IMG/VR virus record: IMGVR_UViG_3300029288_000085
Span: 32,001-96,000 of that record
Reading direction: 5' to 3' (one strand)
Length of the DNA: 64,000 bases
Source of the DNA: a virus
Taxonomy: Duplodnaviria; Caudoviricetes
The position numbers and the translations under genes are program-made. Under the pieces are notes generated by a model that saw only the letters and a program-made list of their open reading frames with translations, searched no databases and was not told where the DNA came from. This document shows, piece by piece, positions 49,381-55,810 of this stretch (position 1 is the stretch's first letter; each line of letters begins with the position of its first letter).

Positions 49381-50319
49381 TCATTTACATTGCATATCAG
49401 ATAGTTTACATCCTTCTATGCTATGTACTTTTCTCTCACATTCTTTGCATAATGTTATTCCCATATCTACATCAGCACTTTCTATAGGATTCCATCTTAT
49501 GCCTTCTTTGTGATGAGCTATAAGATTTTCTGTTGAACCACATTTAGTACATTTATAACCATCACGCTCTTTTACCATTTCAGACCAGTCATGTTGATCT
49601 GGTCTTTCATTTTCATTCAGCCTAAACCCTTTAGGATATTTCTTTTGGTTAAATATAGAACAACTTTTCTTGCACTTGACAGAACAATAAAAATGGTTTT
49701 CACTAGTCGTAGTTCCATTAATTGATCTTAATCTATTTTCTACTGAGGTTCTAGTTGGTGTATACCATTTTTTGCAATTAGCACATCTTACTTGTAATAT
49801 ATTTTTTTCTTTTGGGTTTTCCCTAATTTCTTCACAAAAAGAAATTTGACTAGAATATGTATTAAACCATGCTAAATTTCTTTTAGATACACCATTTTTC
49901 CAATTAGGATGATTTTCTTCTCTGAATTTACCTATCATAATTTCACTTAATTTTTTTCGGGTTTCTCTAGATACAAACTTTCCCTTTTGGGCAATACTCA
50001 TCTTTACTTTGGTTTCTTTAGATGTTGGTTTAGTTCTAATTTTCTTTAGCCCTTTTTGTGCTAATCCCATCCGAATCTTAGTTTCCTCAGATCTGATTTT
50101 ACCTTTATTACCATAACTAATTTTTGCTTTAGATTCATCACTAAACCTTTTACATTTCAAGCTACAAAATCTTCCACAACTATTTCTTGGAGCTAAAAAC
50201 GGTTCTCTACAAGTTTCACAAGAATCAATATATGTATATCGGTTATTAGTAATTAAATCCTTCCAATATCCTTTTCTATAATATCTTAAATTTTCTATAT
50301 TTTCCCAAGTAATTTTCAT
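49381..50319 (-). CDS. Zn-finger/NUMOD3 HNH endonuclease (family copy 2)
   Basis: SEETK repeats, NHPNWKNG, RDGYKCTKCG...AHHKEG...ITLCKEC. Confidence 0.8.
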   Translation of the reverse strand: MKITWENIENLRYYRKGYWKDLITNNRYTYIDSCETCREPFLAPRNSCGRFCSLKCKRFSDESKAKISYGNKGKIRSEETKIRMGLAQKGLKKIRTKPTSKETKVKMSIAQKGKFVSRETRKKLSEIMIGKFREENHPNWKNGVSKRNLAWFNTYSSQISFCEEIRENPKEKNILQVRCANCKKWYTPTRTSVENRLRSINGTTTSENHFYCSVKCKKSCSIFNQKKYPKGFRLNENERPDQHDWSEMVKERDGYKCTKCGSTENLIAHHKEGIRWNPIESADVDMGITLCKECERKVHSIEGCKLSDMQCK

Positions 50320-51550: not shown

Positions 51551-51868
51551 CTACTTTAAATATAAGACCACATGATCTATTTCACCTGCTAGATCTCTCG
51601 GTTTTCTTATTTTTACTATCTTATATTTCAGACTATCTTTCTCTATAACATAAGACTCTAGAATAGTATTGTATTCTGGAGAAAGATATACTCTTATATC
51701 ATAATCTAATGCTTCAGCTACATTTGAGAGATCTTTTAGTGTGCCTTCTTCCCACCGACATTGTACATCGTGATATACGGTGGTTGTAACTAATTTTCCA
51801 TATGCATTCTTAGTAGTTGAATATATATAGTCAATGCTATTATTCAATAAACCTGCTGTAATTGACAT
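51551..51868 (-). CDS. Head closure / head-tail joining protein
   Basis: NAYG...VQCRWE...DLAGEIDHVVLYL; position. Confidence 0.65.
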   Translation of the reverse strand: MSITAGLLNNSIDYIYSTTKNAYGKLVTTTVYHDVQCRWEEGTLKDLSNVAEALDYDIRVYLSPEYNTILESYVIEKDSLKYKIVKIRKPRDLAGEIDHVVLYLK

Positions 51869-52057
51869 TTATTTACCTTTCTTTTTTCGCTTAAAGCCCT
51901 TGAGCGTCTTAGCAAGTGCTCACCTACGTTTGCTTGTAGATGAGAGGCTAGACTGAGCACAATATTCAGAAATTGACATCCCTCTACGATCTGCGGAGGC
52001 TATCAAACTTCCTTTTTTAGAAATAGCACTGGCGATCCAATTCTTTTTCTTAGCCAT
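51869..52057 (-). CDS. 62-aa basic protein with an in-frame TGA at codon 46
   Basis: MAKKKNWIASAISKKGSL...EYCAQSSLSSTSKRR(TGA)ALAKTLKGFKRKKKGK; its TAA abuts the next ATG. Confidence 0.6.
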
Positions 52058-52313
52058 CTAACTCATCACTTCCAATATCAGAATTCACAGTGTCTAAAAC
52101 TATGTCTGATTTACTTATCACTTTTCGTTTTATCTTAACTGGAGTCCATCTCATACGTTTTGATCTCTTCCGTGAAAAGGTATCACCGTTTGTCGATCTT
52201 AGAAGAACTCTGCCATTATTCAAAAACTTAACAAATTCAATCTTGTACCATTTATATCTTAATGAGTGTATTTCAACATACACCTTCTTTTGTTTTTTGA
52301 ATTGTTTTTTCAT
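52050..52313 (-). CDS. Basic hypothetical protein
   Basis: ORF coupled to both neighbours. Confidence 0.55.
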   Translation of the reverse strand: MKKQFKKQKKVYVEIHSLRYKWYKIEFVKFLNNGRVLLRSTNGDTFSRKRSKRMRWTPVKIKRKVISKSDIVLDTVNSDIGSDELDG

Positions 52314-53599: not shown

Positions 53600-55810
53600 T
53601 TATTTAAATGTTGTTTTCCTTTTATTGGATATAAAGCTTCTAGATCTCGTTATAATTAGACTAGATGACTTTCTTATTTCTGCAAAATTTCTTGTTCTTT
53701 CTAAATCATTAAATTCATATCTGAATACATCATATGATGAACTTTGTGAACTAGAGCTAGAAGACTTTGAGCTAGATGATTTAGAACTAGAAGACTTAGA
53801 GCTAGAAGACTTTGAGCTAGACGACTTAGAACTACTGACAGAGCTAGAACTTTGTGAACTAGAGCTAGAAGACTTAGAACTAGACGACTTAGAACTACTA
53901 ACAGAACTAGAACTTTGTGAACTAGAACTAGAAGACTTAGAACTACTAACCGAACTAGAGCTAGAAGACTTAGAACTACTTTGTGAGCTAGAACTAGATG
54001 ATTTAGAACTAGACGACTTAGAACTACTAACCGAACTAGAGCTAGAAGACTTTGAGCTAGAAGACTTAGAACTACTTTGTGAGCTAGAACTAGATGATTT
54101 AGAACTACTTTGTGAGCTAGAACTAGAAGACTTAGAACTACTTTGTGAGCTAGAACTAGAAGACTTAGAACTACTTTGTGAGCTAGAACTAGATGATTTA
54201 GAACTACTTTGTGAGCTAGAACTAGATGATTTAGAACTACTAACCGAACTAGAGCTAGAAGACTTAGAACTACTAACAGAACTAGAACTTTGTGAACTAG
54301 AACTAGAAGACTTAGAACTACTAACCGAACTAGAGCTAGAAGACTTAGAGCTACTAACCGAACTAGAACTAGATGACTTAGAGCTACTAACCGAACTAGA
54401 ACTAGATGACTTAGAGCTACTTTGTGAGCTAGAACTCTGTGAACTAGAACTAGAAGACTTAGAACTAGATGATTTAGAACTACTAACAGAACTAGAGCTA
54501 GAAGACTTAGAACTACTAACAGAGCTAGAACTCTGTGAACTAGAACTAGAAGACTTAGAACTAGATGATTTAGAACTACTAACAGAACTAGAGCTAGAAG
54601 ACTTAGAACTACTTTGTGAACTAGAACTAGAAGACTTAGAACTAGATGATTTAGAACTACTAACCGAACTAGAACTTTGTGAACTAGAGCTAGAAGACTT
54701 AGAACTACTAACAGAACTAGAACTTTGTGAACTAGAACTAGATGATTTAGAACTACTCTGTGAACTAGAGCTAGAAGACTTAGAACTACTTTGTGAACTA
54801 GAACTAGAAGACTTAGAACTAGACGACTTAGAACTCGACGACTTAGAACTACTAACAGAACTAGAACTCTGTGAACTAGAACTAGAAGACTTAGAACTAG
54901 ATGATTTAGAACTACTGACAGAGCTAGAACTCTGTGAACTAGAACTAGACGACTTAGAACTACTAACCGAACTAGAGCTAGAAGACTTTGAGCTAGAAGA
55001 CTTAGAACTACTTTGTGAGCTAGAACTAGATGATTTAGAACTACTTTGTGAGCTAGAACTAGAAGACTTAGAACTACTAACCGAACTAGAGCTAGAAGAC
55101 TTAGAACTACTTTGTGAGCTAGAACTAGATGATTTAGAACTAGATCTACTTGAACTTATACTTGAAGAACTTTTACTAGAAGATGATTTACTTGAACTAG
55201 ACTTAGAACTAGATGATTTAGAACTACTTTGTGAGCTAGAACTAGAACTAACAAAAGTACCCCCGCCAAAATCATCAATTCTAAGATTAGTTCCATAACA
55301 ACATAGTCCGATATATCCAGCAGACCCATAAGTTGAATCTGTTGTGGATAATTTTTCAGTCCATGCTCCTCCTGTGTAATAATAAGCTTTTAAGGCTGTA
55401 CCTATCGCCGAAAGTCCAATTTTCTCCCCACTGGCTACATTCTGAGTCGTAGTTGCTAAGGTTGTCCATCCACCATTAAGCATCTCGTTGATGTCCCATG
55501 TGTCAGGAGAATCATTCAGATTTATATCTAAAATATATCCATCGCAAGTACCAATGTTTAAGGTTGTAGTTCTAATTGCAAGAGATACTTCATCATTAGT
55601 TACAGTGGATATAGTTGCAAAGACTTCGGAAGCAGCCCCAAATGTTGCAGTGTCCCAAGCTCCAACATTAAGGGCACCAGCAGTTCCTCCTGTACACGCA
55701 TTACTCTGAATCTTAAGTGTATTGAGCATATTCGTCCAATTCGCATTGGGCGGGGTGGTATTATTCGCACCCGTGAATGTTTCAATTACACCAGTAGTAG
55801 GAAATGCCAT
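53600..55810 (-). CDS. Serine-rich repeat protein: ~185-aa globular domain, ~500-aa Ser stalk, short basic C-terminus
   Basis: Translation; TAATG-type coupling to the upstream gene; flanked by - strand structural genes. Confidence 0.85.
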   Translation of the reverse strand: MAFPTTGVIETFTGANNTTPPNANWTNMLNTLKIQSNACTGGTAGALNVGAWDTATFGAASEVFATISTVTNDEVSLAIRTTTLNIGTCDGYILDINLNDSPDTWDINEMLNGGWTTLATTTQNVASGEKIGLSAIGTALKAYYYTGGAWTEKLSTTDSTYGSAGYIGLCCYGTNLRIDDFGGGTFVSSSSSSQSSSKSSSSKSSSSKSSSSKSSSSISSSRSSSKSSSSSSQSSSKSSSSSSVSSSKSSSSSSQSSSKSSSSSSQSSSKSSSSKSSSSSSVSSSKSSSSSSQSSSSVSSSKSSSSKSSSSSSQSSSSVSSSKSSSSKSSSSKSSSSSSQSSSKSSSSSSQSSSKSSSSSSQSSSSVSSSKSSSSSSQSSSSVSSSKSSSSKSSSSSSQSSSKSSSSSSVSSSKSSSSKSSSSSSQSSSSVSSSKSSSSSSVSSSKSSSSKSSSSSSQSSSSQSSSKSSSSSSVSSSKSSSSSSVSSSKSSSSSSVSSSKSSSSSSQSSSSVSSSKSSSSSSVSSSKSSSSSSQSSSKSSSSSSQSSSKSSSSSSQSSSKSSSSSSQSSSKSSSSSSQSSSKSSSSKSSSSSSVSSSKSSSSKSSSSSSQSSSKSSSSSSVSSSKSSSSSSQSSSSVSSSKSSSSKSSSSSSQSSSSVSSSKSSSSKSSSSKSSSSKSSSSKSSSSSSQSSSYDVFRYEFNDLERTRNFAEIRKSSSLIITRSRSFISNKRKTTFK
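53735..55249 (-). repeat. Mosaic coding tandem repeat (SSSK / SSSSSSQ / SSSSSSV units)
   Basis: Units such as GAAGACTTAGAACTA, CTTTGTGAGCTAGAACTA and CTAACCGAACTAGAGCTA recur across ~1.5 kb. Confidence 0.95.

Follow-up and report, generated by a model that had tools for sequence, protein, structure and literature searches.

In a tailed phage, a small gene on the reverse strand of the 64,000-nucleotide stretch of DNA analysed here (the window, taken from bases 32001-96000 of an IMG/VR virus record that is complete at 144,334 bp and has direct terminal repeats) is formed by a 62-codon frame containing a single in-frame TGA. Comparison with homologous genes argues, with a probability of about 0.65, that this UGA is decoded as selenocysteine (Sec), with a SECIS-like hairpin located downstream and a Cys33-Sec46 pair in the product. 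At the level of the protein family to which the gene belongs, site-specific recoding of UGA at a conserved Cys codon followed by a SECIS-like hairpin appears highly probable. The estimate is lower for the window gene on account of a marginal hairpin and of closest relatives that carry the Cys form.

The putatively recoded frame and its protein family

The locus is organised as follows (window coordinates).

51869..52057 (-): recoded ORF; 45 codons, UGA, 16 codons and TAA, for a 62-residue, very basic helical protein
51920..51922 (-): in-frame UGA (read 51922-51920) that falls on the second invariant Cys column; proposed to encode Sec as residue 46
51959..51961 (-): Cys33 codon TGT, which precedes the TGA by 13 residues and would encode the partner of residue 46 (C-x12-C/U pair)
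51872..51919 (-): coding tail after the UGA, with an ALAKTL motif and a basic end, homologous to the C-terminal helix of the family
51551..51868 (-): downstream head-tail adaptor gene, 105 aa (phrog_793, E = 4e-5)
52050..52313 (-): upstream 87-aa gene, the stop of which overlaps the small-gene ATG

The ATG of the small gene (52057-52055) shares bases with the stop of the upstream gene (ATGGCTAA), an overlap that suggests translational coupling with the 87-aa gene. The TAA of the small gene (51871-51869) is followed without a gap by the ATG of the adaptor gene (51868-51866). The frame, its TGA and the abutting TAA lie where the original prediction had placed them, and so does the Cys announced 13 residues upstream (TGT, 51961-51959). 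The description as a neck-region gene holds for the clade of the window phage and does not extend to the family, members of which follow the terminase gene in L086, close a tail-fibre block in L158 and adjoin an SNF2 helicase gene in L157. In the late operon of the window phage, a 312-aa Cys-rich gene (49381-50319, (-)) with a faint NUMOD3 match lies between the tail-terminator gene and a 394-aa gene, the counterparts of which adjoin each other in the syntenic relative L092; it looks like an inserted homing-endonuclease-type gene.

Sixteen open codons in DNA of 33% GC would be unremarkable taken alone. What raises them above chance is that the residues encoded after the TGA match the conserved C-terminal motif of the family. 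The read-through product matches 17 proteins of 56-69 aa (E 1e-15 to 2.5e-7, 49-73% identity), all of which span the post-TGA part, with Cys in the TGA column as well as at residue 33. Cys also occupies the TGA column in every IMG/VR locus fetched, these being the best 80 of 81 confirmed (57 TGC and 20 TGT by motif scan, 3 by eye). The original prediction had likened WIxxAI...LAKTL to a family of small basic phage proteins. Such a family exists: a profile search retrieved 1,519 clusters at 90% identity of phage-only, basic helical proteins of about 60 aa (51 clusters at 50% identity in an exhaustive representative search). The likeness covers the full length, from a W-I start through a G-[MK]-S-I..[YF]-C core to the L-A-K-T-L tail.

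The two Cys columns co-vary. In a 49-member alignment of diverse clusters, both Cys are present in 45 members, neither in 4 (M/A, A/A, M/I and I/I) and one only in 0; the first Cys is retained by all TGA forms. As neither Cys occurs without the other, the two residues would act as a pair, most simply by contact or through a disulfide joining helices 3 and 4 in the AlphaFold2 model, which is predicted to have four helices (mean pLDDT 72.5).

Searches with the small protein gave no Pfam family above threshold (sub-threshold NikA-like and HTH-type matches only), no PDB fold match and no family match in the 50,697 cultured-phage records of INPHARED. The ESM Atlas neighbours of a natural Cys homologue are clusters of viral hypothetical proteins only. 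In PHROGs, residues 6-33 match positions 2-29 of phrog_20603 (E = 5e-5), a profile of 59 positions of unannotated function; its length is similar to that of the small protein, only the N-terminal half matches and nothing is recorded on TGA forms. Two matches, both Cys-type, were obtained in bacterial genomes, on candidate-phyla-radiation MAG contigs that are possibly mis-binned phage; apart from these, no cellular homologue of this phage-specific family was found. Four long proteins (P0019, P0024, P0051 and P0056; 377-1,535 aa) each match query residues 18-47 4 to 14 times, and two of them show many weak HTH-type Pfam matches. These matches suggest that the core of the family resembles a helix-turn-helix unit; the four proteins may themselves be repetitive or eukaryotic sequences. 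That the small basic protein would be an HTH-like DNA binder carrying a Cys-Cys/Sec staple or redox switch is only a guess.

TGA at a single codon in divergent lineages

At least thirteen further divergent lineages carry TGA at exactly the same codon, followed by a conserved in-frame tail. The 14 lineages verified at the DNA level are those of the window, L083, L084, L085, L086, L090, L092, L157, L158, L160, L162, L164, L165 and L166. The loci are grouped as L083; L084/88, L085, L086/89/91, L087/90 and L092; L157, L158/159, L160/161 and L162/163; L164, L165 and L166. Locus GC varies from 33 to 54% across the TGA lineages, and pairwise identity is 46-77% among the 11 of them that were compared.

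Several searches converge on this codon. In the representative search, the sole shortened member, P0065 (43 aa), stops just before the Cys column, and its contig (L083, GC 53%) shows TGA, then the family tail in frame, then a true stop. A DNA pattern with a sensitivity of about 75% for known Cys forms found TGA at the column in 3 loci of IMG/VR, 6 loci of the JGI metagenome contigs and 0 loci of 185,579 species genomes; all IMG/VR and JGI matches do belong to the family and keep its conserved tail intact. An earlier pattern, imposing M-S-I with a TCN codon, was discarded as too strict, having recovered 3/80 Cys-type loci, so that its zero matches in IMG/VR and metagenomes are meaningless. With a profile of the N-terminal 45 residues, ORF end points were taken from the best 120 of the 1,519 clusters; 13 ORFs of 41-47 aa were obtained, and all 13 stop directly before the Cys column. 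The DNA of seven more shortened forms was retrieved, and in each (7/7) a TGA is followed by the conserved tail and by a real stop 10-18 codons later. No shortened form with another end point was found in the representative search or among the best 120 profile matches. As a control, IMG/VR was searched for the two Cys columns in other combinations: TGY at both columns occurs at 65 loci, TGY at the first with TGA at the second at 3 loci (the window's own record possibly lying outside this count), and TGA at the first with TGY at the second at 0 loci. The original prediction had asked whether some homologues have Cys at this column and whether independent genomes have TGA; both are found, the former in the 17/17 matched proteins and 80/80 loci, the latter in the 13 other lineages. 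As to gene starts, the near-identical UGA-type genes L087:2880-2941 and L090:681-742 come from sister samples; in L090 a short duplication supplies the ATG, and in L087 a stop stands just upstream of the W-I motif, with no obvious start codon.

The codons that follow the TGA were compared over seven TGA lineages. The pN/pS ratio is 0.15 over 6 codons after the TGA (pS 0.87, pN 0.13) and 0.24 over 9 codons (pS 0.82, pN 0.20), with pS saturated; both values are below that of the part upstream of the TGA (0.43). Taken with the motif match to Cys forms, these ratios argue that the tail is translated and under purifying selection, in keeping with the initial impression that it looked coding.

The distribution of the two forms can be followed in the clade of the window phage. 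L092 (Ga0180007_10001732; a contig of 28 kb and 33% GC) has the gene order of the window phage and carries TGA. Collinearity links L092:1-14909 with window 48168-70000, at 23-57% protein identity, sugar-nucleotide enzymes included; identity is 33-57% for the genes neighbouring the small gene, among them the upstream Ad1 adaptor and the downstream 105-aa adaptor. An extra 223-aa gene is inserted in L092 between the small gene and the adaptor gene and has a homologue at about window coordinate 81665. L156, which is syntenic and as distant as L092, and P0002, the closest relative, are Cys forms, and the small-gene/adaptor junction of P0002 is laid out as in the window phage. Judging from these alignments, Cys and UGA forms would alternate within one phage clade, as they do in cellular Sec/Cys families. 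The window tail keeps the K-G-F-K of Cys forms and not the Arg-rich wording of most TGA lineages, and the nearest relatives of the window gene (P0002, P0003 and L001) are Cys forms; hence, the window TGA could be younger than the others. A maximum-likelihood tree needs about 5 Cys/Sec changes, in a protein too short for switches to be counted, and is compatible with a single origin. In L001/P0020 (IMGVR_UViG_3300044941_000276), the closest IMG/VR relative, the Cys-type protein makes up the last 55 residues of a called protein of 494 aa; this may be a genuine fusion or result from read-through gene calling.

The same comparison brings in the main rival explanation for the window gene, a nonsense mutation specific to its lineage. 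In such a model, a plain Cys-to-stop change would have left a 45-residue protein, functional or dispensable, with a tail that has not yet decayed, and the other lineages might still be true selenoproteins. The Cys-type wording of the tail and the Cys-form closest relatives agree with this model, as does the window hairpin, the weakest of the TGA lineages; moreover, the lone second assembly available is essentially the same sequence and no witness to the age of the TGA within the lineage. However, the mutation would have hit the one codon at which 13 other lineages keep TGA and at which 13/13 shortened ORFs among the best 120 profile matches end, none ending elsewhere. The syntenic relative L092 also has TGA, the tail is intact with its TAA abutting the next ATG as in the Cys-type P0002, and the control with TGA at the first Cys gave 0 loci. 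A lineage-specific nonsense mutation is considered unlikely, while being the strongest competitor of Sec decoding in the window phage.

The hairpin downstream of the UGA

In the bacterial SECIS model, the apical loop has 3-9 nt and the (upper) stem 4-16 bp, one of the first two loop nucleotides is a G, as a rule with G or U after it, the distance from UGA to loop is 16-37 nt and the minimum free energy (MFE) is -7.5 kcal/mol or lower (PMC13188914). Two structures may be drawn in the window.

51887..51915 (-): MFE hairpin after the UGA, loop CAAG, -7.1 kcal/mol
51888..51906 (-): alternative hairpin, 20 nt after the UGA, in register with the hairpins of the other TGA lineages

The first is the hairpin of the original prediction. 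It is indeed the predicted MFE fold, but its stability is no better than that of shuffled sequences (z = +1.04; 176/200 shuffles fold as well). The absence of the usual early G from the CAAG loop had been recognised at once; the alternative fold, with a stem of 4+2 (or 4+3) bp, one C.A mismatch and the apical loop GGGCU (or GGC), agrees with the G rule at only -2.7 to -2.8 kcal/mol. With a loop of 4 or 5 nt at a spacing of 17 or 20 nt, the window lies within the size and distance limits of the model, and its MFE of -7.1 kcal/mol misses the -7.5 threshold. In its MFE fold, the window hairpin falls narrowly short of the energy and loop rules of the bacterial SECIS model.

The 13 other TGA lineages all fit the model on every count. 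Their loops are GGG, GGA (three lineages), GGC (two), AGGU (two), AGUU (two), GGU, GUU and GGUCU, their stems have 6-8 bp (5 bp in L164) and the spacing is 17-22 nt. The MFE over 60 nt ranges from -7.8 to -17.5 kcal/mol, against -7.1 for the window, the hairpin of which is the weakest of the set. An [N]G[G/U] apical loop is present in 11/11 of the TGA lineages tabulated and in 4/41 distinct Cys forms (Fisher p = 2e-8, an optimistic value since the Cys-type set contains close relatives); L164, L165 and L166 show the same G-loop element. The four Cys forms having a G[G/U]-type loop display weak hairpins. At the same place, many Cys forms show a small hairpin whose G residues lie in the stem, the loop being of the UUAA type. 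TGA and Cys forms are not separated by the z-scores of 48-nt and 33-nt MFE values against synonymous recodings (p = 0.12 and 0.11). Raw folding energy does differ (p = 5e-4) and was rejected as evidence, being confounded by GC content. The two forms are told apart by loop identity and position only. A search for the SECIS family of Rfam gave no match.

Many Cys-type loci, such as L008, L015, L023 and L073, contain a small conserved palindrome of the ACCC-UUAA-GGGU type where UGA forms have the G-loop hairpin (codons +5 to +9, counted from the second Cys), and several of them have z below -2 against synonymous recodings. RNA structure may be selected in Cys forms as well, for another reason. 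The coding sequence for L-K-G-F-K, which takes the general form L-K/R-G/R-F/M-K/R after the codon, is intrinsically palindromic (CUY-AAG-GGN-UUU-AAG). It may be imagined that it offers a ready-made hairpin at the right distance, so that the switch recurs at the second Cys and never at the first.

Proposed decoding of the UGA and its meaning

Two simple explanations of the TGA should be considered together, namely a mistake in sequencing or assembly, or the reading of TGA as sense by both phage and host (table 4 or 25). Both deserve attention because the genome is metagenome-assembled and because some phages do recode stops. In the ENA assembly ERZ27247363 (143 kb contig), the small-gene sequence is identical, TGA included; with 0 differences over 5 kb outside a serine repeat, this contig probably represents the same sample, or a sister one, assembled anew, and is no independent witness. 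Within other lineages, however, the same TGA is found in different samples, as in L162/L163 and L086/L091. Sequencing error, which the original prediction had kept as an alternative, is ruled out as far as sequence can show, by the second assembly and by the occurrence of the TGA across lineages and samples. The TGA is not confined to one assembly: ERZ27247363, probably not independent, and the 13 other lineages carry it as well. The serine repeat belongs to a poly-serine protein of 736 aa in the window (53600-55810, (-)) and of 359 aa in the ENA assembly (L081:190-1269); its length is either assembly-dependent or truly variable.

As for the genetic code, TGA ends 48/202 ORFs (24%) of the window phage, neighbouring structural genes included, and is a frequent ordinary stop in all TGA-type contigs. 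Reading TGA as sense brought no gain in coding coverage or ORF length in the window genome and 7 other TGA-type contigs. The sole tRNA of the window phage is Tyr-GTA, and no suppressor tRNA was found in two complete TGA-type phage genomes. Genome-wide reassignment (NCBI table 4 or 25) was rejected on these grounds, and the reading by error or code change, largely refuted, is very improbable. No other convincing gene interrupted by TGA came out of a scan of all 144 kb of the genome. The situation can be compared with that of crAss-like and Lak phages, in which TAG or TGA is recoded genome-wide, often with suppressor tRNAs. A stop read as sense in phage late genes is common to both cases. In contrast, recoding concerns here one codon of one gene, TGA is otherwise a normal stop and no suppressor tRNA accompanies it.

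A more delicate question is which amino acid is inserted, as the comparative evidence speaks for translation of the codon and not for a particular residue. Cys might be incorporated thanks to a SelB-like factor and a tRNA with a UCA anticodon, or near-cognate reading might insert Trp, Cys or Arg, giving mixed isoforms. TGA is the leakiest stop codon, and Cys-charged tRNAs with a UCA anticodon exist in some bacteria. Nevertheless, TGA occurs at a Cys column only, it is followed by a SECIS-like hairpin with a G[G/U] loop at a SelB-type spacing, and two complete phage genomes are devoid of a suppressor tRNA; readthrough with a residue other than Sec is regarded as improbable. The combination of UGA/Cys alignment and a SECIS-like hairpin is the classic Sec/Cys signature used for selenoprotein prediction (PMC13188914). 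Sec would be by far the most likely residue inserted.

The following scheme may be proposed for Sec decoding. The UGA at residue 46 would be decoded as Sec under the control of the hairpin located within the coding sequence, 17-22 nt downstream, which would act through its G[G/U] apical loop as a bacterial SECIS. This hairpin would recruit the SelB of the host together with Sec-tRNA(Sec), the machinery being borrowed from the host; no SelA, SelB, SelD or tRNA-Sec was detected above threshold in the window genome or in the second complete TGA-type phage. The product would carry a Cys33-Sec46 pair, serving as a selenylsulfide staple or as a redox switch, and a 45-residue fragment would be released wherever recoding fails. 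Possibly, the protein would bind DNA through its helix-turn-helix-like core. The insertion of Sec itself, the dependence on SelB, the Se-S bond and the function of the protein are what we infer in this scheme. Insertion of Sec by host machinery with a C33-U46 pair, the central idea of the original prediction, finds support in the co-variation of the Cys columns and in the recurrence of the TGA.

The phage gene shares several traits with bacterial selenoprotein genes such as E. coli fdhF: an in-frame UGA aligned with Cys in homologues, and a hairpin within the ORF, at 17-22 nt from the UGA, having an [N]G[G/U] loop of 3-5 nt and a stem of 5-8 bp (PMC13188914). A nearby Sec/Cys partner, typical of redox selenoproteins, is likewise present in the phage family. 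The loop of L164, GGUCU, resembles that of E. coli fdhF. The differences are that the gene resides in tailed phages and not in cells, the machinery coming from the host, and that the protein, of about 60 aa, is very basic and helical, without an oxidoreductase fold or CxxU motif, the pair being C-x12-U. Among viruses, glutathione peroxidase homologues of molluscum contagiosum and fowlpox viruses are selenoproteins (PMC8310308, PMC1802603). A virus-encoded UGA read as Sec by the host machinery is common to these poxviruses and to what is proposed for the phage family. However, the poxvirus enzymes were captured from hosts by eukaryotic viruses and use a eukaryotic-type SECIS, whereas the hairpin of the phage family is of the bacterial type.

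In the papers searched, the two captured poxvirus glutathione peroxidases are the only viral selenoproteins named (PMC8310308), a 2026 review of the prokaryotic selenoproteome never mentions phages (PMC13188914), and selenoprotein families contained few viral sequences or none in a marine survey (PMC9402790). No phage selenoprotein is described in the literature searched, an absence that is no proof of novelty. The family would probably represent the first selenocysteine-containing proteins seen in bacteriophages. A fuller statement, that it is the first natural bacteriophage selenoprotein family and that its second Cys was repeatedly switched between Cys and Sec, is favoured with somewhat less assurance than Sec decoding in the window phage.

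If this is true, phages exploit the Sec-recoding machinery of their hosts. Phages with the UGA form would then be restricted to Sec-competent hosts, and the UGA would become a sequence marker linking uncultured phages to Sec-using hosts. A class of small phage genes that appear to be missing or shortened would also be explained, since gene callers stop at the UGA. With 62 codons and a hairpin of about 20 nt, the gene would offer a very small natural system for the study of minimal SECIS needs and of the evolution of Sec from Cys. Finally, a Se-S bond could crosslink a virion or DNA-binding protein under reducing, anoxic conditions, and it is from sediments and groundwater, settings of this kind, that the contigs appear to come.
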